A stretch of 32,000 bases of DNA, from NCBI RefSeq assembly GCF_000012805.1, contig NC_007484.1:2130001-2162000 (forward strand), read 5' to 3'. The first letter of the stretch is position 1. Each line of letters opens with the position of its first letter. Shown piece after piece: positions 9,561 to 24,084 of the stretch. Below the pieces are notes generated by a model. It worked only from the letters and a program-made list of their open reading frames with translations. It had not been told where the DNA came from and searched no databases. This stretch comes from Nitrosococcus oceani ATCC 19707 (lineage in GTDB: Bacteria > Pseudomonadota > Gammaproteobacteria > Nitrosococcales > Nitrosococcaceae). The position numbers and the translations under genes are program-made.

Positions 9561-9692
9561 GGTGCTTGGATCTCCCGTATCGTAATTTCCTATGGAGATA
9601 ATCCAACCGCTTCAATGCAAGAAGATATTTTTAAATACAGCTTCTTGTTTGATGTGCTGAGTTCCTCGCTAAGGAGTGGTCTCAAATCTTAT

Positions 9693-9950
9693 TCAGTCCC
9701 TCGTCATTTTTCCTTTAGCGTAGGAGTACACAAATTTGCCTTCTCCCGTAACCATCTTAGTGACTTCGCCCTCAGCTACTAAACATTCAAGGGCTTTCTC
9801 TATTGTCTCCGTGGCTTCTTTAAACCGCTGTCGCGTTAACCACCAACGGGCAATCCCCTCTACACTGTCCGCCGCGTTAGGATGGGCATCAAAATAATGT
9901 TTAATTGCATTTGCCACTGCAGCAAGTTCCTCCTCATTGTGGTCGGGCAC
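9693..9950 (-). CDS. Small hypothetical protein, first gene behind the sigma-54 promoter (possibly winged-helix-like)
   Basis: 85-aa ORF with a GTG start at 9950, about 35 nt downstream of the -12 element. No family recognised. It is called coding only from its position and clean ORF. Confidence 0.5.
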   Translation of the reverse strand: MPDHNEEELAAVANAIKHYFDAHPNAADSVEGIARWWLTRQRFKEATETIEKALECLVAEGEVTKMVTGEGKFVYSYAKGKMTRD

Positions 9951-9984
9951 GAGATGATTCCTACATTGAACTTAATTGTAAAAA

Positions 9985-10000
9985 GGCAGCTTACATGCCA
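9985..10000 (-). promoter_or_regulatory. Sigma-54 (-24/-12) promoter of the CIS operon
   Basis: The minus strand reads TGGCATGTAAGCTGCC, against the consensus TGGCACG-N4-TTGC. GG and GC are separated by exactly 10 nt. It lies 35-50 nt upstream of the first ORF and directly downstream of a sigma-54 activator gene. Confidence 0.7.
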
Positions 10001-10153
10001 TCTGTAATAAAAATTATTATGTAACTGAATTAACAAAAGAATTTATTTATTAGAGAAGCGAAGTAAGAAAACGAATCACATGCAAGGTGAGTAAAAATCT
10101 ACCCATCCTAAAGAGGTATCGCAAAACAAACGATTAATAAACAAAAATTTTTT

Positions 10154-10194
10154 GGTGGGTCATTTTTGTCCCACCATAGGTCAAAAATGACCCA
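10154..10194. promoter_or_regulatory. Candidate upstream activator sequence: perfect 13-bp inverted repeat
   Basis: TGGGTCATTTTTG (10156-10168) and CAAAAATGACCCA (10182-10194) are exact reverse complements separated by 13 nt. A nested pair GGTGGG (10154-10159) / CCCACC (10170-10175) sits inside. The centre is ~176 bp upstream of the -24 GG, with a very AT-rich spacer between. Confidence 0.45.
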
Positions 10195-10583
10195 GTCAAT
10201 AGGACGAATTTTTAAAATTCATGATGCTGCCGTATTTTTAAGCATATGAATAAAATGTGAGGTGTTGTAGGAGCGAGCTGATGGTGTTCCGCAAACCCAT
10301 GTTTCCTTCCTAAAAAAGGGTTTACGAAGACTTCCGTGTCTCCTGGCCCCACGTCACCGGCTCGCTTCAGAAATACTTCAAAGTTTTTACTGCAATACTT
10401 ATATTGAAGTCACCCAGGATAAAACGCAGGCGATGACGGCGCATGGGGCTTCAGTAAAGCCGGGATGTTCTTTTGCTCTTTAAAGGAAGAAATGACAGCT
10501 GAATCCGTAATCGCGCCAGGTGCGGATCAGTCAATAAGAGACGATAAGTTCGCCCTCACCGTTCATACGCGAGATAGAAAGGG

Positions 10584-11990
10584 CTATATGTCTTTACTTT
10601 TAATATAAAAAGCTCTGTTGATTTGATATTTCTTAAGCAATTTACCGAAGGTGCGCCGCTCCTTTCCCGCCCGTTTTGCAGCCAGGGAAATATTCCCATG
10701 GCATTCGGCCATAAGACATTCCAGATATTGCTTCTCGAAGTGCGCAATAACCTGGGTTTTAGCTTGATTAAAGCTCCCTCTATAGCCACCCGGGGATTCC
10801 AATGGAGGGTTATTTTCACTTCCTATCGAAGGAAGTCTTTGGGGTGGCAGGGGGATCAACGGACCTTTGGAGAGCAGCAAGGCCCGGTGAACGAAGTTTT
10901 CCAACTCCCGCACATTACCCGGCCAAGGATAATTTTTCATCCAAACAAGCGTGGTCGGATGGAAGGCTTGGGGGGATCGGCAATATTTAAGGCTGTATTG
11001 ATAGAGAAAATGTGTAGCCAATGATTCAATATCGCCCGATCTTTCTCGCAAAGGGGGCAAGAAAAGCGGCATGACATTGAGACGAAATAACAAATCTTGA
11101 CGGAAATTCCCGCGCCTCACTAAGGCCTCCAAATCCTCATTGCTGGCGGAGATAACCCGTACATCTGCCTGTTTTAGACTCCGACTCCCCAAGGGTCGGT
11201 ATTCCTGATTCTGCAAAAAACGCAGTAAAGCCACCTGCGCCTTCGGGGAGAGGGATTCCACTTCATCGAGAAACAAAGTCCCTTGGTGAGCTTGGGCTAC
11301 CAACCCTAGTTGAGCTTCTTTAGCATCCGTATAAGCACCGCGCTCGTGGCCAAAAAGCTCGTTTTCCAACAGCGTATCTGAGAGGGCCCCACAATTGATA
11401 GGAATGAAAGGATGGTCTTGCCGCAAGCCGAGGTAATGAATAGCGCGGGCGGCCATTTCCTTACCGGTGCCCGTTTCGCCTTCGATCAATACGGGGGCTT
11501 CGCACTCGCTCAGGGCTTTTATCAATTCGAGGGCATTTAAAAAGGCGGGCGATTGTCCAATCAGATTTAGACTAGCCAACTCATCTCGGAACACTAATGG
11601 ATGAGGAGAAACCTGTGGTGGCATTATCCCCTCACAACCCCGGGCTAGGCGTAATGACAGCTCCTTCCCCTGGCAGGGCCAACGTAGAATTTCCCGGCAG
11701 TAGGCTAGCAGCTCCGCATCCCAAGGAGCTTTATCATCGGCAATCACCACTAAAGCGGGGGTTATCCATTGCTCCCGCAGACTAGAAAGCAGACGATCGC
11801 GAGGAAAATGGTTTGAGCCTATGGCCAGAACGATCGGTGTGCCCGGGAGCATTAGTGCCTGTGCGAGCCAATCGTGACCCTGCACGCTTTGAACTGGTCG
11901 GTTAAGCGCTTTCAAAGCAGTGCAGAGGATATCTTCAACCGCACGGGACACAAAAGAAACGAGGTTCAGGGGCACTGGGGTTGTATTCAT
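10584..11990 (-). CDS. Sigma-54-dependent transcriptional activator (bacterial enhancer-binding protein, Fis-type HTH)
   Basis: AAA+ core with Walker A GETGTGKE, the sigma-54 contact loop as ELFGHERGAYTDA, Walker B LFLDEVESL, and RVISASNEDL...FRQDLLFRLNV. The C-terminal HTH is GNISLAAKRAGKERRTFGKLLKKY. The ~135-aa N-terminal domain is of unclear type. Confidence 0.92.
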   Translation of the reverse strand: MNTTPVPLNLVSFVSRAVEDILCTALKALNRPVQSVQGHDWLAQALMLPGTPIVLAIGSNHFPRDRLLSSLREQWITPALVVIADDKAPWDAELLAYCREILRWPCQGKELSLRLARGCEGIMPPQVSPHPLVFRDELASLNLIGQSPAFLNALELIKALSECEAPVLIEGETGTGKEMAARAIHYLGLRQDHPFIPINCGALSDTLLENELFGHERGAYTDAKEAQLGLVAQAHQGTLFLDEVESLSPKAQVALLRFLQNQEYRPLGSRSLKQADVRVISASNEDLEALVRRGNFRQDLLFRLNVMPLFLPPLRERSGDIESLATHFLYQYSLKYCRSPQAFHPTTLVWMKNYPWPGNVRELENFVHRALLLSKGPLIPLPPQRLPSIGSENNPPLESPGGYRGSFNQAKTQVIAHFEKQYLECLMAECHGNISLAAKRAGKERRTFGKLLKKYQINRAFYIKSKDI

Positions 11991-12918
11991 TATTTCGCTC
12001 CTTCATCCTACAAACCCGTGGTCCATACTGAAGGCATGGGCAGACATGCACAGTCCAACCGATGAGGTGGCAGTAGGAAAATGCTAAGCTTGATAGACCT
12101 CTTGTCTGCCTCTCCCTCTAGCGTCTTATCACCCTGCAGTCCGCTTGCTTTGGGGATGTCTTATTTTTTAAGTTTTTTATTGTGAGCGCGGCCCTTTATC
12201 CCTGATATTAGTAGGCGTCACCTTACTTTGCCAACATATTTGCATTTGAAACCATTAATATCACACGTATTTCCCTCTCTCTGGTTTAAGGGGATTGCCT
12301 GTTATTAAATACCCTAGGGGAGTAAGCGTTTTTTCTCTGTAAATTCTTGTACCCAATAGTTGTGACATATTTACAACACTTCTCGATTTTCCTCAGTTGA
12401 ATTATGAAGTGGCCAGCCAGGGATGGGGCAAGGGCTTTCCAGCCACTTCAGGAGCTGGCAGGCTTGAGAGCCTATCTATGGGCAGCGTGAACGGTTGTTG
12501 GAGTACGCTGCGGCACATATCCCGCCTATGATGAAAGCACGGAGGAAATAAATCTCCAGTTCGTCATCCTGTGGTGCTAGAGATTAGTGGTAAGGCTGGG
12601 AAGGGCCACTGTAGAGACTCTCCTACAGACCCTGACCTGACCGGGCATTACCGCGAAGGGATTCTACTTGAGATGAGCACAGTCAATTGGCACTGCTCGA
12701 TACCTATCATGAAGGTAGGGCACGATGTGAACTGGCGATTGAGTCTGCACTGAAATTAAAAAACAGCATCTATCCTTAAAAGAGGAAATCGCCTCTTTTC
12801 TTCAGGCCAAATTTCCCCAAGATCCAGCGCTTGGCGGAAAAGCGGAAAAGCTGTAGGCCGAGATCGGTTTTGAGGATGAAGAGCCATCCATCCTCAGGCT
12901 GCAAAGCCGCGATCAACA

Positions 12919-13014
12919 CGAGGCTCCGCAAAACGCGCGAGCGCATCAGACGACCGATGCGTTTTATCACCAGTATACCGCAAGGCTATATATTATAGAG
13001 TCTGACCCCTTTTG
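12919..13014 (+). repeat. Direct repeat copy A (96 bp), possible solo IS-end remnant
   Basis: 90 of 96 positions match 20993-21088. It ends in AGGCTATATATTATAGAGTCTGACCCCTTTTG. Weaker similarity extends ~25 nt further left (12893-). GACCCCTTTT is tandemly duplicated at 13005-13024. Confidence 0.9.
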
Positions 13015-13030
13015 ACCCCTTTTATTTTAA

Positions 13031-13516
13031 ACAATCATAAAGCTCTATGAACATCAGGGCCGCCCGCTTGTCTATATCGACGAAAGCGGCTTTGCGCATG
13101 ACATGCCCCGTACACACAGATACGCGCGGGTTGGACAGCGCTGCTACGGACTGTGTGACTGGCACGCCAAAGGCCGGACAAATGCTATCGGCGCTTTGAT
13201 TGGCAAGGCTTTGCTCACAGTCGGGTTATTCACAGCAAACATTACGGCAAACATTTTTACGGCATGGGTAAAACAGGATTTGTTGCCGCAATTGCCGGAA
13301 AACGCCGTCATCGTCATGGATAACGCCACGTTCCACAAACGGCTGGACACACAAGAGAGTCTCCGAAAGGCCGGCCATACCCTGCTTTTCCTGCCGCCTT
13401 ACTTTGCAGAGCTCAACCCCATCGAACAAAAATGGGCGCACATCAAAGCCATCAGAAAACCACTCTCCTGCTCTATCGATGACCTCTTCAAAATTGAATC
13501 ATTTTATGTGACGTAG
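13031..13516 (+). pseudogene. IS630-family transposase, C-terminal DDE half only (N-terminal HTH region missing)
   Basis: The frame is open from 13031 and reads LVYIDESGF (first D), RTNAIGAL, VIVMDNATFHK (second D), LPPYFAELNPIEQKW (E). There is no matching N-terminal ~170 aa upstream. The stop at 13514-13516 is followed by AGGCTATAG, which resembles the end of the 96-bp repeats. Confidence 0.85.
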
Positions 13517-13628
13517 GCTATAGTGGAGTCAGGCAACTGGATTTTCTGTGAAATATTCACAGAACCCCGCTATTGCAAAAACTATCAACATAGGCTAGAT
13601 CTTTAGCTACAAAAAAGAGGGTGCCGCC

Positions 13629-14651
13629 ATGCGCATGACCAGAGCTGAGTTTCAGAACTATCTTGATGCACGGGCTGGTCACGCCATTTATCTTGATCCG
13701 GGTCTTTATGAAGGCCCCGTTGAGGTGCCACCACAAACTAGTGTGATTGGTATCCCCGGAAGAACGGTGATCTGGGGCACTGGCATTAATGATTGTCCTG
13801 TAATGCATTTCATGCCGTCCTCCTCAGAACGCCTTAATGAAAACCTCATCTGCTCTGGTCTTGTCATCGCGGCTGATTCGAAACGTGTTGTCCCTGCTCT
13901 GCGGCTTAGCCATTGGCGTTATGGCAGGCTCTCCGACATTGTGGTCCTGAGCCGTTCCGATGGCGTCATCCTTGATGGATGGCACGGTAGTGTGGCGGAG
14001 CGTATTGTATGCTGGAGCCACAACGCTTGGCTCTACCTTACCCACGATCTGAAATTGCCCCGCGTTCCGGGAGCGAAGCATACGCAGACTGGAATTCGTT
14101 TACGCAGTGGTGACGACCTTGATGCCCCCTGGCCCGCGATGTATGCGAGCTTTCGTGACTGCGTTATTAATGGATCTAGCGAGGAGAGTGAGTATCCCGC
14201 GGTGGAAATGGAACGGGGAAAATCTGGCGGCCATCTCAACCAGATAAGTTGGGAGGGGGGTTGGATCCAGCGAACGAAAACGGCATTCCGAATCAAGGAT
14301 GCTTCGAGTCGGCCCCATCACTTCGCGTTCCGGTCCGTAGGCTGTGAGCAAATCACTAATTTTATCGACGCTGATGGTATCGACTTCGTCACAATCGATA
14401 GCTGCACGCTCCAAGGCCCTGGCCGCCATTGGCCAGCCCTGAAGGTACCGGCCTGTCAGCGCCTCACGATCCGTGATACCTCTGCGGTGGGTCTAATCGA
14501 TTTTAGCAATAACCATCACGCTTCGGCTAACCTAGTCGCTGCGAACAGTAATGTGGAAGGCCTTGCCAGCGGTAGCCCCGATGAACTCTACGCTTATATG
14601 ATTTTGGGTTATTCTATTGACGGAGCGCACGGCATCTGGAAACGGCCTTGA
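13629..14651 (+). CDS. Hypothetical protein (possibly right-handed beta-helix repeat fold)
   Basis: 340-aa ORF with AGAGGG 7 nt upstream of the ATG. The fold guess rests on periodic short hydrophobic/Gly/Asn segments. No catalytic motif recognised. Confidence 0.6.
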   Translation: MRMTRAEFQNYLDARAGHAIYLDPGLYEGPVEVPPQTSVIGIPGRTVIWGTGINDCPVMHFMPSSSERLNENLICSGLVIAADSKRVVPALRLSHWRYGRLSDIVVLSRSDGVILDGWHGSVAERIVCWSHNAWLYLTHDLKLPRVPGAKHTQTGIRLRSGDDLDAPWPAMYASFRDCVINGSSEESEYPAVEMERGKSGGHLNQISWEGGWIQRTKTAFRIKDASSRPHHFAFRSVGCEQITNFIDADGIDFVTIDSCTLQGPGRHWPALKVPACQRLTIRDTSAVGLIDFSNNHHASANLVAANSNVEGLASGSPDELYAYMILGYSIDGAHGIWKRP

Positions 14652-15306
14652 ACGCTGATAGTGAATTATTTAGCTATTGTTCCTCAATCCTATAGGGAGA
14701 TTATTAGGCTCGGCGCCTGTTGATATTTTTATTGAGCTGCGCCTTCCGCCCAGCGCAGGCATTGTCAGCCATCGCAATATACCCCCGCAGTAATCGGCCA
14801 TTCAATGCTTTAATGTGCTCCAGGATCGGAAGCCTCAGGAACAATTCATTACAGTTCCTTAAGGAATAAAACCGACACCGTAAGCAGATAATCGCTTACC
14901 CTTCAGAACCACTAATAACTTCTCTGCCGCCGACTCAGGCTGTCCACCATAGCCATACCCCTACTCTCGGCATATGGCGATGAAATAGACTTTCTCATAG
15001 CCATGCCGTATGCCAAAAAGCTTTTTTATTTATCGTCGTTCAGGAAAAAACTGGACGCACACCTTATGTCTATAGAAATAATTTTAATGTTTAAAAAATG
15101 CGGTACTAGCCTTTCATTTTTCTATACTTTTTGTCATTTAATCAGGCGCTTATAAAACTTACAAAAAATTCAAAAAAATACGGCAAAGCACCCTGTTTTT
15201 ATAAATTCGGATAATGTGAACTATTTCACTCAACCGATATAAATTAGTAAACAGAAAACACATTACTCCATTGGCTATCCTGTCATCAAGATAAAGGAAT
15301 ACTGAC

Positions 15307-15398
15307 ATTACTAAATTACTAAATTACTAAATTACTAAATTACTAAATTACTAAATTACTAAATTACTAAATTACTAAATTACTAAATTACTAAATTA
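15307..15398. repeat. Octanucleotide tandem repeat (ATTACTAA) x 11.5, perfect
   Basis: Direct reading: eleven exact ATTACTAA units at 15307-15394 plus ATTA. It is intergenic, in an AT-rich ORF-free stretch ~630 nt upstream of the caspase-fusion gene. Confidence 0.98.
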
Positions 15399-15729
15399 AG
15401 TAACAGGAGAAATACTTTATTAAATCTGTATAAGCAGAAAAAAATAGGAAGAGTTTTTAGATTTTCTTATCAAGAATAGCCCAGGTAATTTTAATAAATG
15501 ATAAATAGAACGGAAATCTTAGGCGGGAGAAAATACGCCTAATATAATCAAATGGAAAATAACCCGCCTTAACAATACACAAGGATAGTGGAAATTTAGA
15601 GGTTGTAGCACGCAAGGGTAACCGTTTAGCCCATTACTGGAGAAAAGCAAATGGTGGTCCTTGGCAGCATAGTACAGATTTTTAAGCTATAAAAAGTATC
15701 AGGCCACATAGTTTACTCTGGCACTTTAT

Positions 15730-15766
15730 TGAAAAATCCTATCCTGGCGGTATACCCCCAGGATAG
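15730..15766 (-). terminator. Possible intrinsic terminator on the minus strand inside the AT-rich leader
   Basis: 9-bp stem CTATCCTGG (15739-15747) / CCAGGATAG (15758-15766) with a 10-nt loop. On the minus strand it is followed by GATTTTTC. No annotated minus-strand gene ends here. Confidence 0.35.
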
Positions 15767-16030
15767 AAATGAAACGAAAAAAGAAAAACATCAGAAAATG
15801 ATGTACCACACAATGAAAAATATTTTTAGTTTAGAACACTTATGAAGACACCTAGGGGAACCACATGCCTTGTCAAAGAAAGGTGACTTTCCGCTCAAGT
15901 ATTTTCAGGCAATCTATCATCTACAAGCAAGAAAGATTTACCAAAGAAATGGCAATTGACTGCTAACAACAGGCATTAAATACATGAGAACGGGCCGGTG
16001 CAAACCTGCCAAAAAAAGGGAGCAGATCCT

Positions 16031-18754
16031 ATGTCAAGAACATTTCAGTCGGTCACTGGTTCCGAATTCCAGGATGTGGTCGCCGCCTACCCTTTCACCC
16101 GCCGGGTGACGGAAGTGCATCTTCATCACACCTGGCGCCCCCGGCAGCAAGACTATCGGGGGCTGGCCACCCTCGAAGGCATGTGGCGCTTCCATACCCA
16201 GACCCATGGCTGGAGTGATATTGCCCAGCATGTCACCATCGCCCCGGATGGGACCATCTGGCTTTGCCGCAATTTTAACTGGTCGCCGGCCAGCGCCCGC
16301 GGCTTTAACGGCAACCGGAAAGCCGGTCCATTCATGATTGAGCTGATTGGCGATTTCGATATCGGCAAGGAAACCATCACGGACCCGCAAATGGAAGCCA
16401 TGCTGACGGTGATCAAGACCATTCAGGATCACTTCAAGCTCCATCCTTCCCAGCTTCGCTTCCACAATGAAATGTCGGGCAAGACCTGCCCCGGAACCGG
16501 CTTCGACAAGGCTCAACTTATCAGGGACATTGAAGGCCACGCCCTGGAAGGCAGCACTGCAAGCCGCGGCGGGGATACCCCCTTTCCCGAGCGGGCGGGC
16601 CGGGCGTTTGAATTGATGCGCGGCCTTAATCCTTATGCCCGGCAAACTGATGAGATGGACGAGGCCGAGCATGCGGTCGGCTACGAGGCGCTTGAGCAGG
16701 CCTCCCGCAGCCGGTTATTCGGTCCTGAACTGACCGACGAAATGATCAATGCGCTCACAGATTATGTGGTCAACCTGGAATGGGGGCAATTTTCCGATTC
16801 GGGCCGCATCGGAACCACGCCCGGCGATGTGGACCGGCTGTTCGAGGAAGCAATACCGGCCGAGATCGAAGCGGCCAAAGCCCGCCAGGAAAAAGCCCGG
16901 CTTTTATTCTACGCTCATGGCGGGCTGGTGTCGGAGGAAAATGCTTTGCTCGGCGCTTTCAGCCAGCTCAAGTTCTGGCGCCGCAATAATGTCTATCCGA
17001 TTTTCTTTATCTGGGAGACGGGCTTTGCCGAGACTATCCGGCAGCTGATCAGCGCCGCCGTTGACAGGACGCGGGCGCGGGCGCGTATTTCCTGGGCAAC
17101 CGATAACATTATTGAAGAGGTGGTGCGGGCGCTCGGCAGTCCTCGGGTATGGGGCGGGATGAAAGCCAGCGCTTTGCTGGCCAGCGAACCCGATGGCGGT
17201 GCGGCCTATGTGGCGCAAAAAGCAGCCGACCTTTTGCAAAAGCACGGCGATGATATTGAATTTCACACGGTCGGCCATAGCGCGGGCTCTATTTTCCATG
17301 CCCATTTCATGGCGGCGCTCGTGAACAGGGGCGCCCGCCTCAAAACCGCCCATTATCTTGCCCCCGCCATCCGCTCCGATCTTTTTCACAAAATTGTCGC
17401 GCCGCATCTTGGCAACAGCATCGGGCCCCTGACGGTGTTCACCATGACCAAACAATTGGAAAGGGACGATACCGTCACCCCCCTTTATCGTAAATCGCTT
17501 TTGTACCTGATTTACGAAGCCCTGGAAGAAAAGCGTCAGACCGATATCCTCGGGCTTGAAATCTCACTGCGCGCCGACGATAAGGCGCGGGAGATATTCG
17601 GATTGCGGGGCACGCCTTCAGACCGGGGGGAAGTAGTGTGGTCACCGAGCAGCAATGCTGACTCGGGCAGCGCCAGCCAATCCTCTATCCATAGCGGCTT
17701 TGATGAAGACAAGGCCACCATGGAAAGCATCGCCCGGCGCGTCCTCAACCGGCGTGAAGGCCAGCCCATCGCGCCCTTTGAGCCGTCGCGCTCACGGGCG
17801 GCGGTCGATTTCTGGCAAGACCAGATTGACTGGCCGGAGCCTCTTGAGGCCTTGATGAGCAATGGCGCCGCCGCTGCCCCGGCTCCGGCCGGGGTAGCCC
17901 CCACCGTTATCGTCCCCCCGGCGGTGCAGCCCGGCCATCGGCCCAGTACCGGCCGCAAGCTTGCCCTGTGCGTCGGCATCGATCAGTATCCACGCAGCCC
18001 CTTAAGCGGTTGTGTGGCCGATGCCCGTTTATGGGAGCGTACGCTTTCCAACCTCGGTTTCACCACCAGCCGATTGCTGGATCAGGAGGCCACCGCCGAG
18101 ACCATTCGCACCCAATTGCGCACCCTGGTGCAAAACAGCAGCCCCGGCAATGTGCTGGTCTTCCAGTTCGCCGGACACGGCACCTGGATCGAGGATATTT
18201 CAGGGGATGAGGGAGACGGCGACACGCCGGATGGGGACGAATGCTTGTGCGCCGTGGATTGTGAAAGCGGGGAGGACGGCTTAATCATTGACGATCAGCT
18301 TCGCGTTATCCTCAACGATCTCCCAAGCGGCGTCGCCATGACTTGCTTTTTTGATTGCTGCCATTCCGGGACGGCCACCCGGGCATTATTACGGCCCTTT
18401 AGAACAGGGGCGCGGGGTGGAGAAACGCGCCCGCGTTATCTGGCGCCCTCGGCAGCCATGAAGCAGGCCTTTAAAAACCTTAAAAACCGAGCGGCGCGCC
18501 AAGGCGCTATGGGCACCAATACCATGCGCGAGGTGCTGTTCAGCGCCTGCCGCTCAGGCGAACTGGCCTATGAGAGCAACGGCCAGGGCGATTTCACCGC
18601 GCGCGCCGCGCAGGTGCTCGCCAATGGCATCGGCTCGCTCACCAACCGGGGTTTTCACGACCAGGTGCTGGAGAAATTCGGCCAAGCGCCCCGCCAGCAC
18701 CCGGAACTGGACTGTCAGCCCGAGCGGCTCAGCGCTCCGTTGCTTAATCTTTAA
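16031..18754 (+). CDS. Three-domain protein: N-acetylmuramoyl-L-alanine amidase (PGRP/Amidase_2) + alpha/beta-hydrolase (DUF900-like, GHSAG) + caspase-like peptidase C14
   Basis: The PGRP zinc ligands are present: VHLHHTW ... RFHNEMSGKTCPG. The hydrolase part reads LLFYAHGGLVSEENAL, IFFIWETG, and the nucleophile elbow HTVGHSAGS. The caspase part reads KLALCVGIDQY, the His in FQFAGHGT and the Cys in FFDCCHSG. The preferred start is ATG 16031 (MSRTFQ), with AGGGAG 8 nt upstream. No signal peptide is evident. Confidence 0.88.
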   Translation: MSRTFQSVTGSEFQDVVAAYPFTRRVTEVHLHHTWRPRQQDYRGLATLEGMWRFHTQTHGWSDIAQHVTIAPDGTIWLCRNFNWSPASARGFNGNRKAGPFMIELIGDFDIGKETITDPQMEAMLTVIKTIQDHFKLHPSQLRFHNEMSGKTCPGTGFDKAQLIRDIEGHALEGSTASRGGDTPFPERAGRAFELMRGLNPYARQTDEMDEAEHAVGYEALEQASRSRLFGPELTDEMINALTDYVVNLEWGQFSDSGRIGTTPGDVDRLFEEAIPAEIEAAKARQEKARLLFYAHGGLVSEENALLGAFSQLKFWRRNNVYPIFFIWETGFAETIRQLISAAVDRTRARARISWATDNIIEEVVRALGSPRVWGGMKASALLASEPDGGAAYVAQKAADLLQKHGDDIEFHTVGHSAGSIFHAHFMAALVNRGARLKTAHYLAPAIRSDLFHKIVAPHLGNSIGPLTVFTMTKQLERDDTVTPLYRKSLLYLIYEALEEKRQTDILGLEISLRADDKAREIFGLRGTPSDRGEVVWSPSSNADSGSASQSSIHSGFDEDKATMESIARRVLNRREGQPIAPFEPSRSRAAVDFWQDQIDWPEPLEALMSNGAAAAPAPAGVAPTVIVPPAVQPGHRPSTGRKLALCVGIDQYPRSPLSGCVADARLWERTLSNLGFTTSRLLDQEATAETIRTQLRTLVQNSSPGNVLVFQFAGHGTWIEDISGDEGDGDTPDGDECLCAVDCESGEDGLIIDDQLRVILNDLPSGVAMTCFFDCCHSGTATRALLRPFRTGARGGETRPRYLAPSAAMKQAFKNLKNRAARQGAMGTNTMREVLFSACRSGELAYESNGQGDFTARAAQVLANGIGSLTNRGFHDQVLEKFGQAPRQHPELDCQPERLSAPLLNL

Positions 18755-18771
18755 GAAAGGCTGAGGCGCGA

Positions 18772-20802
18772 ATGAAAGGCCCGCCTATCCCTACTCCAAC
18801 GGCCCCCGAGGCCGTTGAAGCCATCGCCCAGAGCCGGGGCGGACAGCCGGCACCCGGCGCCGGCAAGCCCGCCGGACCCGAACCTGGAGAAGGTCAACGC
18901 TACCGGATAAGCGCGCGCATCGACCGGGCCGAGTACACCCGGTTGCATGAGCGAACACCGGGAGAGCCCCTTTACCGGCCCCTTCGAATTTACGCCCTGA
19001 ACCCGGCCGTGTCGCGCCTTGACGGCGGCATCGCCGCAACCAAAATCCAGTATGAGCCCCTGGCGCCGGGACCAAAAGGCTCGATTCTGGAAGTCGATTC
19101 CCAGGATGCCGAGGGCCGCACCTACCCCAAGGCCAATCTTGAGGACCCCCTGGTGCTGCTGGAGGGGGGCTACACCCCCTCCCTCTCTTCGCCCTGCTTC
19201 CACCAGCAAATGGTCTATGCGGTGGCGATGATGACCTACAACCACTTCAAAGTGGCCCTCGGGCGCAATGTGGCCTGGTCATTCGCGCCCCGCGATCCGG
19301 CATCGGGAAACAACCGGCTGCTGCTACGTCCCCACGGGGCGCGGGAGGCTAACGCCTGGTACGATCGAACCCGGGGTGAAATCGTCTTTGGCTACTTCAA
19401 GGCGAAAAACTCAACGCCGGTGGTGCGTCAAGACGAGGGGTATGTATTCACCTGCACTTCCCACGATATCATCGTCCACGAAATGAGCCATGCCTTGCTT
19501 GATGGCCTCAGAGCCCACTTTCTCCATCCTACCCAGGGCGACGTGCTGGCCTTTCATGAAGCATTTGCCGATCTTATCGCCGTGTTCCAGCACTTCACCT
19601 TTGAAGACGTGGTGCGGGCCGAAGTCGCCTGCTCGCGGGGCAACCTTGAGAAGGCCGAGTTGCTCATTGACATCGCCCAGGAATTTGGCCGCAGCCTTGG
19701 CGAAGACGGACGGGCGCTGAGAACTTTGGTGGATTTGGCGGAACATTGCCATATTGGCGGCCACGATCACCAAATCAAATCCGGCGCCAATCCTCTGACC
19801 TATGACAATGCAGGGGTAGAACCCCATGAACGGGGCCGTGTGCTGGCCTGCGCCGTCTTTTCGGCATTTCTGACCCTTTACCGGCGGCGAACGCGCCGCT
19901 ATATCAAGCTGGCCACCCACGGCACGGGGGAGCTGCCCAAGGGCGATCTCTCCGATGGGTTGACCGATTTTCTGGTTGCCGAGGTGCGGCGGCTGGCCAA
20001 TCAGTTTCTGACCATCTGCATCCGCGCGATTGATTATTGCCCTCCTGTGGACATGCGCTTTAGCGACTACCTGCGCGCCCTGATCACCGCCGACCAGGAT
20101 GTGGCCCCCGACGATGACTGGGCTTACCGGGAGGCCATTATCCATGCCTTTGGCGAGCGGGGAATTTATGGCGAAGGCACGCCCACCATGACCGAGGATG
20201 CGCTCACCTGGGGCGGGCCGCGTCTTCCCATCGAGCCGGAGCCGGAGCTTAGCTTTGGACGCATGAAATTTGACAGCGATCCGGCCAAGCCTGCGGACGT
20301 TGCGGAGATGCGCCGGCAAGCGGGCGCCCTCGGGCGGCTCGCCACGCGCGTGGAATTGGCGGCGGAATTTGGGCTGGTCAGCCCCTCCAGCGCCGCTTTT
20401 GCCAGCGGCGAGTATGGCCTGCCCGTGGTGGAATCGGTGCGCTCGGTGCGGCGTGTGGGTCCGGACAAGCAGGTGGTTTTCGATATGGTGGCTGAAATCA
20501 TTCAGACCCGGCGCGTTAAAGATCGCCAGGGACGTCAATTCTCTTTCTATGGCGGCTCCACCGTTATCCTGGGTCCCCGCGGCGGCGTCCGCTTTATCAT
20601 CCGCAAACGGGTCGATCATGAGAAGCGGCTGGAAACCCAGCGCGAGTTTATGCACAGCACCGACGAGGCGGCATTCTGGGAAGCGGAGGGAAACCGCGTT
20701 CGCCCGGCACGTGATCTTTCCCGGCGCCTGTGCGTTCGCTTCCGCGCCAGCCCTAACTCGGAAAGCGAGGCAAGCGACGTACCGGCGCCGGGCCCTCGAT
20801 AA
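18772..20802 (+). CDS. Thermolysin-like (gluzincin, M4-like) zinc metallopeptidase without signal peptide, Pro/Gly-rich N-terminus
   Basis: HEMSHAL followed 23 residues later by FHEAFADL gives an HExxH...ExxxD arrangement. The upstream segments FHQQMVYAVAMMTYNHFK and ANAWYD..GEIVFGYF run parallel to thermolysin AHYYAGVTYDYYK and NAFWNGSQMVYGDG. It starts 17 nt after the stop of the caspase-fusion gene, with GAGG upstream. Confidence 0.85.
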   Translation: MKGPPIPTPTAPEAVEAIAQSRGGQPAPGAGKPAGPEPGEGQRYRISARIDRAEYTRLHERTPGEPLYRPLRIYALNPAVSRLDGGIAATKIQYEPLAPGPKGSILEVDSQDAEGRTYPKANLEDPLVLLEGGYTPSLSSPCFHQQMVYAVAMMTYNHFKVALGRNVAWSFAPRDPASGNNRLLLRPHGAREANAWYDRTRGEIVFGYFKAKNSTPVVRQDEGYVFTCTSHDIIVHEMSHALLDGLRAHFLHPTQGDVLAFHEAFADLIAVFQHFTFEDVVRAEVACSRGNLEKAELLIDIAQEFGRSLGEDGRALRTLVDLAEHCHIGGHDHQIKSGANPLTYDNAGVEPHERGRVLACAVFSAFLTLYRRRTRRYIKLATHGTGELPKGDLSDGLTDFLVAEVRRLANQFLTICIRAIDYCPPVDMRFSDYLRALITADQDVAPDDDWAYREAIIHAFGERGIYGEGTPTMTEDALTWGGPRLPIEPEPELSFGRMKFDSDPAKPADVAEMRRQAGALGRLATRVELAAEFGLVSPSSAAFASGEYGLPVVESVRSVRRVGPDKQVVFDMVAEIIQTRRVKDRQGRQFSFYGGSTVILGPRGGVRFIIRKRVDHEKRLETQREFMHSTDEAAFWEAEGNRVRPARDLSRRLCVRFRASPNSESEASDVPAPGPR

Positions 20803-20992
20803 AGCGCATAAGTAATGAGACAGTCCACTGATAAAAACCCCCACCTACGGCAGACAGATTCTTCAAACCTTGTGTCAGAGGCCGGAAAGCCAGCGTTTTC
20901 CAACCACTTAGTCTCACCAACGAGGGGAGTCCATGTCCCAACCGAGCGCGCCAAGAGTCGCGGATTCTCAGGTTACAAACCCGCGAACAACC

Positions 20993-21088
20993 CGAGGCTC
21001 TGCAAGACGCGCGAGCGTATCAGACGACCGACACGTTTTATCACCAGTATGCCGCAAGGCTATATATTATAGAGTCTGACCCCTTTTG
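20993..21088 (+). repeat. Direct repeat copy B (96 bp), possible solo IS-end remnant
   Basis: 90 of 96 positions match 12919-13014, in the same orientation. Weaker similarity extends left to ~20968. Confidence 0.9.
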
Positions 21089-21308: not shown

Positions 21309-21719
21309 TTATTCAATATCCATGGGTACGATAACCGGCTTACCATCCTGGATCACCGGTACGTCCACATCCGTCCTATCGACGCCGAATTCATAGGTAC
21401 CTTTCTCGCCGGTGTCCTCGTGCAGCATGACGAAGACCTTGTCGCCGGAGGCAACTTCCTCATCCAGGCTAACGCTGACGTCTTCTTGGGTACCGGATTT
21501 CACTGCCGAATAGCCAATGGATTGTGGTGCAATAATATTGCCATGCTCGTCGCTGGCGTGAATCACCACGAAACCATCATCCGGGACGGTTACACTATCC
21601 ACAGTGATTTCGCTGCCTGCCGGTTGAGGCGACACTTCGATTGCCGCCTTTTCGGCGGCGATGACAAAGCCGGCCACGCCGGTCATAGCCAGTACTAGCG
21701 GTAGAGTACGAAATTTCAT
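21309..21719 (-). CDS. Small secreted protein (DUF7282-like beta domain)
   Basis: The preferred start is ATG 21719, with AAAGGAG upstream. MKFRTLPLVLAMTGVAGFVIAAEKAA is a signal peptide. The body GFVVIHASDEHGNIIAPQSIGY...VSVSLDEEVASGDKVFVMLHEDTGEKGTYEF resembles the DUF7282 pattern. The track start at 21818 adds an unlikely 33-aa extension. Confidence 0.7.
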   Translation of the reverse strand: MKFRTLPLVLAMTGVAGFVIAAEKAAIEVSPQPAGSEITVDSVTVPDDGFVVIHASDEHGNIIAPQSIGYSAVKSGTQEDVSVSLDEEVASGDKVFVMLHEDTGEKGTYEFGVDRTDVDVPVIQDGKPVIVPMDIE

Positions 21720-22129
21720 CCCATTGCTCCTTTCTTGCCAAGTCAATGAATCCTGTTTCGCTTTCACCAAGCTAGATGAGTACATCAAAGTATAGGAAAA
21801 ATAAACCACCTTTTCCATGAGGATTGAATGTACGGAAAGCTGGGAAGGCCGGGGAAGCTGGCTTGGCTGTCAATCACTATGATAATCCATCGAAAAACAA
21901 CTGCACTCCGGTTCAGCTAGCACAAAAAAATCAAAGTCTCTGCCCCCTCAAGAATTTTGGCGATTGCCCCCGATTCCAGGATAGCGCGATGATTTCCAAT
22001 TCCCCGCTACAATTCGGGCCGTGTTCAATGCCGGTATCGAACACCCGCTTTAACAGGCGCGCCCAACGGATGCCGCAGAATGTGGCGCCTCCTCATTCGC
22101 ATCGCTTGGGTTGTTTTTGCATTCCACCA

Positions 22130-22364: not shown

Positions 22365-23285
22365 TCAAGTTATCTGCTTCAAGCGGCTTATCCGCGCCCG
22401 GCCTACCCGGCTTTGGTTCTCCCGGGTCAGGGTTTGGCAAATATAATTACCCACCTCGATCAGTTTTTTAAGATCCACGCCGGTTTCAATACCCATTCCC
22501 TCCAACATATACACGACATCTTCCGTCGCTACATTGCCAGTGGCTCCCTTGGCATAAGGACACCCACCCAAACCAGCCACAGCGCTGTCAATAACGGAGA
22601 CCCCAAGTTCCAGGCAAGCAAAAATATTGGCCAGCGCCTGGCCGTAGGTATCATGGAAATGCACCGCCAACCGCGCCAGGGGAATCTCTTCCGCCACCGC
22701 CGCCAGTAGCTGTTGGGCCTGCAAGGGAGTGCCGATCCCAATGGTATCGCCGAGGCTGATCTCATCCACGCCCAGATCGGCAAACCAGCGCGCCAAACGG
22801 GCCACCTGGCGAGCTGCCACCGGACCCTCGTAGGGGCAACCCAAAACACAAGATAGATAGGCCCGCACCCCTAGCCGTTTTTCCCGAGCCTTGGCAATCA
22901 CCGGCTGATAACGATCCAGTGATTCCGCCACGGAACAATGGATATTTTTTTGGCAAAAGGTCTCCGTTACCCCGGTGAATACGGCAATATCCGCAACCCC
23001 GGCGGCAAGCGCCCGCTCCAGTCCGGCCTGATTGGGCACCAGCACCGGATAGCGCACGCCGGGCTGGCGTTGAACGCCGGCATACACCGCTTCGGCATCC
23101 GCCAATTGGGGCACCCAGCGGGGACTGACAAAGCTGGTCGCCTCGATAACCGGCAGCCCCGTTTCAGCCAACCGCTGAATAAACTCGATTTTAGTGGCCG
23201 TTTCCACTCTGCCGGGTTCATTTTGCAGGCCGTCGCGGGGCCCCACTTCAACGAGTTTGACCCGATCAGGAAATAATGCGCTCAT
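22365..23285 (-). CDS. liuE: Hydroxymethylglutaryl-CoA lyase
   Basis: VKLVEVGPRDGLQNE at the N-terminus, TIM-barrel HMGL-like motifs (ISLGDTIGIGTP, HFHDTYGQALAN, GLGGCPYAKGATGNVATEDVVYML), and leucine-catabolic operon context. Confidence 0.93.
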   Translation of the reverse strand: MSALFPDRVKLVEVGPRDGLQNEPGRVETATKIEFIQRLAETGLPVIEATSFVSPRWVPQLADAEAVYAGVQRQPGVRYPVLVPNQAGLERALAAGVADIAVFTGVTETFCQKNIHCSVAESLDRYQPVIAKAREKRLGVRAYLSCVLGCPYEGPVAARQVARLARWFADLGVDEISLGDTIGIGTPLQAQQLLAAVAEEIPLARLAVHFHDTYGQALANIFACLELGVSVIDSAVAGLGGCPYAKGATGNVATEDVVYMLEGMGIETGVDLKKLIEVGNYICQTLTRENQSRVGRARISRLKQIT

Positions 23286-23292
23286 CGATGAA

Positions 23293-24078
23293 TCAATACC
23301 GCCAGCGGGGCGGGCGTTTTTCTAAAAAAGCAGCGATTCCTTCTTGCCCTTCTGGCGAGCCGCGCAGACGGGCAAGCATCTCACCGGTATATTCCCGCAG
23401 ACTCTCCCCTCCCGGTTCAAGCCGAGCCAATAATCGTTTGCATTCGGCTATGGCTAGCGGCCCCGCCTTGAGAAGTCGGCGCACCTGGGAGGCCACAGCG
23501 GTTTCCAGCTCATCGGCATTCACCACCTGATGCACCAGTCCCAGCCGGAGAGCGACAGCACTGGGAATCAACTCACCACTCAGAAAAAACCGCCGTGCTT
23601 GGCGGGGGCCAATGGCGGCGACCACATAGGGGGCAATAATAGCGGGCACCAATCCAAGCCGAACCTCGCTGAAGGCAAAACTGGCGGAAGACACAGCGAT
23701 GGCAATATCGCAACAGGCTATCACCCCAATCGCTCCCCCATAGGCAGGACCATTGATCTTGGCAATGGTAGGCTGGGGCAAACGGTTCAATAACCGCATT
23801 ACCATGGCCAATTGCTGCGCATCCTGGCGATTGTTCTCTTCCGTTTCCAAACCCATGGCGCGCATCCACTGAAGGTCGGCGCCACTGGAAAAGCTTTCTC
23901 CCTGGCCGGTGAAAATCACTACCCGTATGGTCTCATCCTTGGCAATCGCCTGTAGCTGGCGGTGTAAAAGAGTGACCATTCGCCCGTCCAGGGCATTATG
24001 GCGGGCGGGAGTATTGAGCGTAAGCGTGCAAACACCCCGTTCATCGGTTTCTATTCGAATCGGTTCTAAGTCCATCAT
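23293..24078 (-). CDS. liuC: Enoyl-CoA hydratase family protein, context-inferred methylglutaconyl-CoA hydratase
   Basis: Crotonase fold motifs (LTLNTPARHNAL, VVIFTGQGESFSSGADL, INGPAYGGAIGVIACCDIAIA). It sits between the MCC beta and HMG-CoA lyase genes. Confidence 0.88.
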   Translation of the reverse strand: MMDLEPIRIETDERGVCTLTLNTPARHNALDGRMVTLLHRQLQAIAKDETIRVVIFTGQGESFSSGADLQWMRAMGLETEENNRQDAQQLAMVMRLLNRLPQPTIAKINGPAYGGAIGVIACCDIAIAVSSASFAFSEVRLGLVPAIIAPYVVAAIGPRQARRFFLSGELIPSAVALRLGLVHQVVNADELETAVASQVRRLLKAGPLAIAECKRLLARLEPGGESLREYTGEMLARLRGSPEGQEGIAAFLEKRPPRWRY

Positions 24079-24084
24079 GCTTCT

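Follow-up and report, generated by a model that had tools for sequence, protein, structure and literature searches.

Noc_1884/Noc_1885 of Nitrosococcus oceani ATCC 19707, a candidate protease-gated self-destruction cassette with a thermolysin-fold partner protease

The genome of Nitrosococcus oceani ATCC 19707 contains two adjacent, co-directional genes, Noc_1884 (open reading frame 1, ORF1) and Noc_1885 (ORF2), of which the first encodes a fusion of an amidase domain, an alpha/beta-hydrolase and a caspase-like protease, and the second a metalloprotease; the question raised by this locus is what such a set of enzymes does in the cell that produces it. The window examined is a stretch of 32,000 nucleotides of contig NC_007484.1 (positions 2,130,001-2,162,000; assembly GCF_000012805.1), and all coordinates are positions in this window unless a locus of another genome is named. 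A sequence-only reading of the same DNA had proposed a conflict or cell-death system of unusual and unrecognised architecture, driven by a muropeptide-sensing domain. A conflict or cell-death role is still the best reading, and the relationship that had been suggested between the two proteases is plausible; the sensor role is not retained, for the reasons given further below.

The two genes form a conserved, co-evolving module, which we read as a mobile two-gene protease-gated self-destruction system, most likely for abortive infection against phage; the probability of this reading is put at about one half. Parts of the architecture have been described before. The amidase-metacaspase fusion of N. 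oceani was listed in 2012, with its middle domain and the partner gene left unanalysed (Asplund-Samuelsson et al., PMC3501461), and an alpha/beta-hydrolase was noted to occur invariably together with the caspases of bacterial conflict systems (Kaur et al. 2020, PMC7159879). LcHydrolase of Lysobacter capsici is a zymogen, which LcCaspase cuts after two arginines to unleash cell death (Evans et al. 2025, PMC12642450), and the accessory metallo-beta-lactamase-fold proteins (MBLs) of Lamassu, AVAST and the defence-associated reverse transcriptase (DRT) systems are protease-gated pro-nucleases (Tuck et al. 2025, PMC12799240). The architecture as a whole is thus less unfamiliar than had been supposed: the protease-gated effector module is already known, and the new elements are a thermolysin-fold hub and an endolysin-type amidase fused to the hydrolase-caspase.

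Domains and catalytic sites of the two proteins

Both genes were found where the sequence-only reading had placed them, with products of 907 and 676 amino acids and a gap of 17 nt, in which a GAGG-type ribosome-binding site is located. The product of ORF1 is 100% identical to ABA58350.1 of N. oceani ATCC 19707, and its ATG start has an AAGGGAG ribosome-binding site 8 nt upstream; an alternative GTG start at 15998 would extend it to 918 amino acids and raise all residue numbers by 11. For ORF2, the RefSeq re-annotations WP_256998749.1 and WP_244859951.1 give a protein of 459-460 amino acids, which is probably truncated at the N-terminus, given that the first ~220 residues are conserved in alignments of the family. 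Neither protein is likely to have a signal peptide, as had been noted, or a membrane segment, because the highest Kyte-Doolittle 19-residue window reaches 1.31 in ORF1 and 1.12 in ORF2; the Pfam scan found no propeptide domain in ORF2 and no known marker of a secretion system in either, and both are predicted to be cytoplasmic.

Residue conservation was judged in 30-sequence alignments spanning many phyla. The three domains assigned to ORF1 earlier are all present: Amidase_2 and Peptidase_C14 are significant in Pfam, and the domain between them was recognised by AlphaFold and Foldseek. The Amidase_2 domain scores 41.1 bits in Pfam (cut-off, 26), and it does no worse against phage families, namely the PHROG endolysins (E = 7e-12) and amidases (E = 4e-11); the solved structures closest to it are those of T7 lysozyme and phage endolysins, and the peptidoglycan recognition proteins (PGRPs) of animals, such as those of insects, rank below. 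Residues H32, H145 and C153 are invariant and H33 is invariant or nearly so, and a HMMER alignment to T7 lysozyme pairs H32 with H17, H145 with H122, K151 with K128 and C153 with C130; K151 is mostly conserved. The earlier statement of an intact site therefore stands for the zinc ligands and the lysine, but not for the catalytic tyrosine, since the position of T7 Tyr46 is occupied by an invariant glutamine (Q66). The zinc site is thus intact, and hydrolytic competence is uncertain given Q66.

The middle domain of ORF1 (~380 residues) has no Pfam match. An AlphaFold model built on 30 homologues (predicted local distance difference test score, pLDDT, 87.5) retrieved almost only alpha/beta-hydrolases in Foldseek, with a probability of up to 0.99 and E ~2e-3, among them an archaeal lipase, esterases, thioesterases, PlaB and cutinases. 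The DUF900 profile that had been suggested for this domain does not match ORF1, but gives weak matches in four of the 30 homologues; a few also touch LIDHydrolase or Abhydrolase_1. In the HGG oxyanion motif (residues 296-298), G297 and G298 are invariant and H296 is nearly so; the nucleophile S417 of the GHSAG motif (nt 17279-17281) and H554 are invariant. Furthermore, R350 is nearly invariant and is followed by Gly or Asp in the homologues; it lies in the sole low-confidence loop of the hydrolase core, after a helix (model residues 121-124, pLDDT <50). By its resemblance to the first Arg-Gly site of LcHydrolase (PMC12642450), R350 is a candidate caspase cleavage site.

The C-terminal domain is a metacaspase-like protease whose dyad, H716 (nt 18176-18178) and C777 (nt 18359-18361, in DCCHSG), is invariant in the 30 sequences; the intact dyad and GHSAG motif of the earlier description are thus confirmed, and the residues C788 and S428 named there, numbered from the GTG start, are C777 and S417 in the numbering from the ATG. 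The generic 'caspase' model of PADLOC matches ORF1 with E = 5.6e-19, and the closest caspase relative in the Protein Data Bank (PDB) is Geobacter GSU0716 (E = 1e-17), followed by metacaspases. As in metacaspase structures, the Asp of DCCHSG presumably reflects a preference for a basic P1 residue (Arg or Lys).

When searched by itself, the hydrolase domain retrieves 2,109 representative clusters. In nearly all of the best 150 of these, another ~300 residues follow the hydrolase, and in every full-length representative scanned they are a clan-CD protease, either C14 or C11 clostripain; one scanned protein stacks C11, CHAT, the hydrolase and C14. The N-terminus of the hydrolase-caspase proteins is variable and consists of nothing, Amidase_2, DUF7379 or larger regions. 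A candidate stand-alone version of the hydrolase (P0368) sits on a contig of 1.2 kb. On plasmid pRle248d (locus L090, 448-8080), the same hydrolase type is fused to an annotated C1 (papain-like) peptidase, which looks like another protease pairing of the hydrolase; genes for a trypsin-like protease and for a member of the caspase family are located nearby.

ORF2 has no match in Pfam, NCBIfam (E <= 0.1), PADLOC or PHROGs and no significant match among PDB sequences, and its fold was identified by the structure model alone. This model (pLDDT 85.5) matches vibriolysin and thermolysin in Foldseek (E = 5e-6, probability 1.0); a profile of the ORF2 family against the Bacillus neutral protease 1NPC places HExxH and ExxxD in register, at an E-value of only 0.59. 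The HExxH...ExxxD gluzincin site that had been noticed in the sequence is made up of invariant columns (Table 1), and it is intact in 90 of 90 family loci, across all partner types. The label 'thermolysin-like' is appropriate for the fold, that is for the HExxH motif, the Glu of ExxxD as third ligand and the two lobes that ORF2 shares with M4 thermolysin. In contrast to true M4 proteases, ORF2 has no match to Pfam Peptidase_M4 or M4_C, no signal peptide or other secretion signal and no FTP/PepSY propeptide, and it has an extra C-terminal domain of ~170 amino acids, a disordered N-terminal tail and a predicted cytoplasmic location.

No significant structural match was obtained for the C-terminal domain of ORF2, and the weak ones (E > 0.1) read as NTF2-like folds; the domain is a candidate for regulation or sensing. 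The disordered tail carries the AQSR motif, which ends at R22 and is followed by a variable Pro/Gly linker, and a role of R22 as a site for Arg-specific cleavage or docking is speculative. The motif is found in many, not all, members of the family; as a marker of pairing with a caspase it was dropped, since several members that are paired with a caspase lack it and some other members have it. Among viral structures, Foldseek returned nothing significant for the ORF2 model, and the family is nearly absent from phages, with two weak or partial matches in phage genomes and six in IMG/VR; an origin from a phage lysis gene was rejected on these grounds. A literature search by locus tag, accession and topic found no paper that describes the metalloprotease partner, and no mention of a thermolysin-like partner was found in the text of PMC12799240 or PMC12642450; we could not find a description of this family.

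A conserved module with exchangeable partners

Homologues were counted as 90% clusters for ORF2 and as full-length proteins for ORF1. On this basis ORF2 has homologues in more than 7,314 clusters and ORF1 has more than 1,000, with a wide, patchy distribution over Proteobacteria, Acidobacteriota, Chloroflexota, Chlorobiota, Verrucomicrobiota, Planctomycetota, Armatimonadota, Nitrospirota and others. Loci were surveyed by a scan with the ORF2 profile (one genome per species), and the 80 best were inspected. In 23 of these 80, a full amidase-hydrolase-caspase gene is located directly upstream of the metalloprotease gene, and a hydrolase-caspase gene without a detected amidase domain takes the same position in ~12 more, eight of them with complete upstream sequence. 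The pair is also adjacent in genomes of Granulosicoccus, Novosphingobium and Opitutaceae. The distance matrices of ORF1 and ORF2 from 26 pairs are strongly correlated (Mantel r = 0.86; 0 of 2,000 permutations as high). The two genes are therefore a conserved, co-evolving module, and the co-occurrence of homologues that had been proposed as a check was found.

All-against-all clustering of 803 neighbouring ORFs revealed no widely conserved neighbour beyond the classes of partner genes, which are hydrolase-caspase (33 loci), MBL (17 loci) and astacin-like (six loci); no immunity-type or sensor gene is conserved near the pair among the loci clustered. Members of the family are carried on 57 plasmids, 34 of which are conjugative. 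A self-contained, widely transferred and horizontally mobile cassette is supported by these observations.

The same metalloprotease family is also accompanied by other enzymes: S8 subtilase fusions together with MBL genes, and patatin, phospholipase-C-like, astacin-like and M43-like genes. An MBL gene is present in at least 17 loci, and most of the metalloproteases there are ~1,180-1,200 amino acids long, which is the length of N-terminal S8 subtilase fusions; the fusion was confirmed in two. In an Armatimonadota metagenome-assembled genome (locus L077, 7881-14565), genes for the metalloprotease, an MBL and an amidase-hydrolase-caspase are three abutting co-directional genes; here both main types of partner meet at a single hub protein. 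The MBL partners in these sister systems match the PADLOC models LmuA, RTasMBL, Avs1a and PDC-M48B, of which the first three belong to Lamassu, DRT and AVAST, respectively.

The sister types also occur among defence genes. On the conjugative Rhizobium plasmid pRle248a (locus L091, 3915-14163), a patatin-metalloprotease-MBL operon lies between the cyclase of a cyclic-oligonucleotide-based antiphage signalling system (CBASS) and Hachiman (DUF1837 and helicase); on plasmid pCMU01, a subtilase-metalloprotease and an MBL gene are flanked by two SIR2 genes, an ATPase with an exonuclease, and an insertion sequence (IS). The metalloprotease is a natural candidate for the licensing enzyme, because it is the only protease in the patatin-metalloprotease-MBL form. 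Overall, it is the constant, always catalytically intact hub, with lethal hydrolases that are swappable around it, an arrangement like that of defence systems in which a single conserved core is combined with interchangeable effectors.

Proposed function and alternative readings

For the self-destruction system proposed here, ORF2 would most likely be the trigger-responsive activator protease, i.e. the constant hub, and ORF1 a latent multi-effector that combines an Arg-specific metacaspase-like protease, a hydrolase zymogen of lipase/esterase type and an endolysin-like amidase. An infection cue would act on ORF2, perhaps via its C-terminal domain, and ORF2 would then activate the caspase domain through either cleavage or assembly. 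The caspase would cut the gating loop of the hydrolase (candidate R350); the linkers between the domains and the tail at the N-terminus of ORF2 may be further targets. The freed hydrolase would damage the membrane, and the signal-less amidase could reach the peptidoglycan after this breach, as a phage endolysin does, so that death or lysis of the cell would precede the release of phage. Of this picture, the domain identities, the conservation of the catalytic residues, the pairing and co-evolution of the two genes, the exchange of partners around the metalloprotease, and the defence-island setting and MBL homologies of the sister systems were observed directly; the defence function of this variant, the direction of the cascade, its cleavage sites, substrates and trigger are what we infer.

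No named system in PADLOC v2.0.0 fits the pair, as had been anticipated: ORF1 matches the generic 'caspase' model only, and ORF2 matches nothing. The LcCaspase/LcHydrolase module shares with ORF1 a clan-CD, presumably Arg-specific protease in obligatory association with a lipase-like hydrolase, the cytoplasmic location, modular N-terminal add-ons and a conserved Arg in a disordered loop of the hydrolase. It differs in that its protease and hydrolase are encoded by neighbouring genes, whereas they are one polypeptide in N. oceani, and in that the N. oceani pair has no STAND, WD40 or vWA-MoxR sensor, with Amidase_2 and a thermolysin-fold protease added. Membership of ORF1 in the LcHydrolase-type module is plausible but unproven. 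The protease-gated MBL modules (Hachiman/AVAST/Lamassu/DRT, canu) share their MBL genes with the sister systems of the metalloprotease, where the MBL is often accompanied by a fused S8 subtilase, and S8 subtilases are among the three classes of protease that have been reported with such MBLs; unlike these modules, the cassette of N. oceani lacks an MBL gene. Bacterial gasdermin/CARD systems share the logic of a protease that licenses a lethal effector, with caspase and subtilase interchangeable and cell death as the outcome, but the N. oceani pair has no gasdermin, CARD or NLR-like ATPase, and its effectors are enzymes, not a pore-former. Phage lysis cassettes (holin and T7-lysozyme-type endolysin) contain the closest relatives of the amidase, which is likewise signal-less and in need of a membrane breach; in contrast to these cassettes, the N. 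oceani pair is encoded by host or plasmid, would achieve the breach by the hydrolase and not by a holin, and has Gln at the Tyr46 position.

Several observations weigh against self-destruction as proposed. A defence-island setting was seen for the sister types only and not for the amidase-hydrolase-caspase type, and the pairs of this type whose flanks were inspected in detail, those of Granulosicoccus, Novosphingobium and Opitutaceae, are flanked by unrelated metabolic and regulatory genes, with no defence genes; the survey of neighbourhoods that had been called for thus confirms co-occurrence of the two genes. No STAND, TPR or WD40 sensor domain is detected in ORF1 or ORF2, for which Pfam gives only Amidase_2 and C14. 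No second Arg cleavage site was recognised in the hydrolase, and the LcHydrolase zymogen needs two. Lacking the tyrosine of T7 lysozyme, the amidase domain may not be a hydrolase. The cascade could also run in reverse, with the caspase activating the metalloprotease, e.g. by trimming the AQSR tail, or the two proteases could act in parallel. Finally, the adjacency of genes for an extracellular contractile injection system (eCIS) in two diverged genomes, described below, is not explained by self-destruction.

Considered jointly with its sister systems, the pair allows a broader reading, which we put forward tentatively, as a possibility on the weaker side. The thermolysin-fold family would be a very large, unrecognised group of cytoplasmic infection-sensing hub metalloproteases, which license interchangeable death effectors either directly or via a second protease (caspase, subtilase or astacin); the effectors would be lipase-type hydrolases, patatin, phospholipase C, MBL pro-nucleases and endolysin-like wall hydrolases, and the N. 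oceani form would be a cascade from metalloprotease to caspase to lipase and endolysin that lyses the cell from within. If true, this would be a bacterial counterpart of initiator/executioner protease cascades. The self-destruction model proposed above, if right, would add a new and abundant immune or cell-death class (>7,300 clusters, spread over the majority of bacterial phyla and numerous conjugative plasmids), the organising component of which is a metalloprotease and not a nucleoside triphosphatase or a nucleotide-signalling enzyme, and it would provide a concrete, testable two-tier protease cascade in bacteria. It would also represent the recruitment of an endolysin-type amidase by the host for self-lysis, and it would give a function to the sole 'metacaspase' of this model marine nitrifier, a protein that authors have referred to since 2012 as a hint that bacteria undergo programmed cell death.

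Of the alternatives, the one that survives best, though we consider it unlikely, is that Amidase_2 senses muropeptides in the cytoplasm, much as AmpD or NOD do; ligand bound after damage to the cell wall would activate the caspase, which would then form a cascade with the metalloprotease. The Gram-negative cytoplasm holds anhydro-muropeptides from AmpG/AmpD recycling, ORF1 is predicted to reside there, and the invariant Gln at the Tyr position could mean binding without hydrolysis; an immunity context, as for the animal PGRP and NOD sensors with which the Amidase_2 fold is shared, is conceivable. The N-terminal position of the domain is also a common one for sensors in protease-effector fusions (PMC12642450). 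However, the domain can be dispensed with, as is seen in the many hydrolase-caspase proteins that accompany this metalloprotease with a different N-terminal domain or none at all. In some variants its place is taken by a DUF7379 lipase-type hydrolase, and the metalloprotease there gains a C-terminal PG_binding_1 and Glyco_hydro_19, so that the replacements are enzymes and not receptors. Non-catalytic sensor PGRPs have lost the zinc-binding Cys, whereas ORF1 and its homologues retain the zinc ligands, including this Cys, and in most cases the catalytic Lys, and the nearest relatives are phage endolysins and not sensor PGRPs. Because it is optional, is swapped for enzymes and is closest to phage endolysins, the amidase domain is regarded as an add-on effector, and it looks more like an add-on of endolysin type than like a muropeptide sensor that drives the system.

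Less likely still is a functional tie of the cassette to the neighbouring eCIS, either as cargo toxins directed against other bacteria or as an autolysis module that releases the particles. A partial eCIS locus, which had not been mentioned in the sequence-only reading, is encoded on the minus strand in the same window (1308-9560; Table 1), and several eCIS release their particles by lysis of the producer cell. In a diverged metagenome-assembled genome (locus L050, ~47% identity), a pair of this type lies at a distance of 2.4 kb from the same eCIS genes: within 1613-17736 of this locus the pair is located at 4826-9812, flanked on one side by genes for an M23 peptidase and an MBL and on the other by a BTAD regulator and the eCIS genes. 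The DUF4157 effector of L050 carries VanY, PG_binding_1 and CHAP, and this eCIS appears, from these domains, to target peptidoglycan. Against a tie speaks that L050 is the only one of 80 other loci with eCIS genes within 8 kb, the family overall being independent of eCIS, and that Pfam detects no eCIS_core/DUF4157 marker in ORF1 or ORF2; in the N. oceani window itself, a regulator gene, a transposase fragment and a repeat separate the pair from the eCIS ATPase gene, and the orientation is divergent.

That the proteins are ordinary degradative enzymes, i.e. non-classically exported bacteriolytic or predatory weapons or agents of developmental autolysis or wall turnover, is very improbable, for while an amidase, a lipase-type hydrolase and two proteases are the set expected of a lytic cocktail, and roles in autolysis or programmed cell death and as a 'highly destructive weapon' were proposed in the 2012 survey (PMC3501461), a signal peptide, a membrane segment and known markers of secretion systems are absent from both proteins, no neighbour such as an immunity gene is conserved among the loci, the patchy, plasmid-borne distribution is unlike that of housekeeping genes, and the partners include a family of DNA pro-nucleases that act inside the producing cell (PMC12799240).

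Genomic setting in the window

The features of the window are summarized in Table 1.

Table 1. Features of the cassette and of its surroundings, in window positions
Feature	Position	Strand	Basis or remark
Pvc16_N + CarboxypepD_reg	1308-2189	-	eCIS locus
eCIS_core/DUF4157 with C-terminal Ntox4 toxin	2189-5158	-	eCIS locus
CxxCxxCC protein	5097-5831	-	eCIS locus
eCIS_core + OmpA	5800-7200	-	eCIS locus
AAA+WHD ATPase	7197-9560	-	eCIS locus
Sigma-54 activator	10584-11990		beside eCIS locus
136-nt direct repeat, copy 1	12879-13014		repeat search of the window
DDE_3 (IS630-type) transposase fragment	13103-13516	+	Pfam E = 6e-23; inside the repeat-bracketed segment
340-aa ORF	13629-14651	+	inside the repeat-bracketed segment
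ORF1, Noc_1884 (ABA58350.1)	16031-18754	+	907 aa, Amidase_2 / alpha/beta-hydrolase / caspase fusion
Amidase_2 (T7-lysozyme/endolysin-like)	16100-16495	+	aa 24-155, Pfam E = 2.8e-10
Divergent alpha/beta-hydrolase	16736-17830	+	aa ~236-600; AlphaFold model and Foldseek
R350, candidate caspase gating-cleavage site	17078-17080	+	alignment, model, analogy to LcHydrolase
Peptidase_C14 (metacaspase-like)	17954-18715	+	aa 642-895, Pfam E = 3.7e-22
ORF2, Noc_1885 (ABA58351.1)	18772-20802	+	676 aa, thermolysin-fold gluzincin
N-terminal motif ..TPxAxxAxAQSR (R22)	18796-18837	+	alignment; pLDDT 34-45, disordered tail
Zinc site HEMSH (H236, E237, H240) + EAFAD (E263, D267)	19477-19572	+	invariant columns
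ORF2 C-terminal alpha+beta domain	20269-20736	+	aa ~500-655 (~170 aa), secondary structure of the model
136-nt direct repeat, copy 2	20953-21088		88% identical to copy 1, spacing 8,074 nt

The two copies of the direct repeat bracket a segment of ~8 kb, which holds the DDE_3 fragment, the 340-aa ORF, a spacer of 36% GC and the cassette; insertion by a mobile element fits this arrangement, and the repeat could be a scar left by insertion, or a small repeated element that is present twice. The cassette had been described as lying between IS remnants: there is one such remnant upstream, with the repeats on both sides, but no transposase ORF was found downstream of the cassette in the window. Similarly, the cassette is richer in GC (61.1%) than the upstream spacer (36%) and the downstream flank (52%), as had been noticed, but 55-58% GC is also reached elsewhere in the window, in genes that look native. 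Because these other genes are nearly as GC-rich, GC content alone is weak evidence of transfer, and it was dropped as proof.

The spacer upstream of ORF1 contains a tandem array of ~13 copies of the 8-mer ATTACTAA at 15283-15422, the length of which could vary and alter expression. The 340-aa ORF has no Pfam or PHROG match and no tblastn match in 80 related loci; it had been considered as a third conserved gene and was dropped, as it is not homologous to the ~336-aa gene that precedes the pair in Novosphingobium; that gene and the ~312-aa gene of the Opitutaceae genome are not related to each other either. Downstream of the cassette, a DUF7282 protein is encoded at 21309-21818 on the minus strand. 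It is followed at 22365-31556 by a cluster for leucine/isovalerate catabolism (HMG-CoA lyase, enoyl-CoA hydratase, carboxyltransferase and thiolase), which also includes a fused MeaB-methylmalonyl-CoA-mutase-like gene; these metabolic genes mark the edge of the island.

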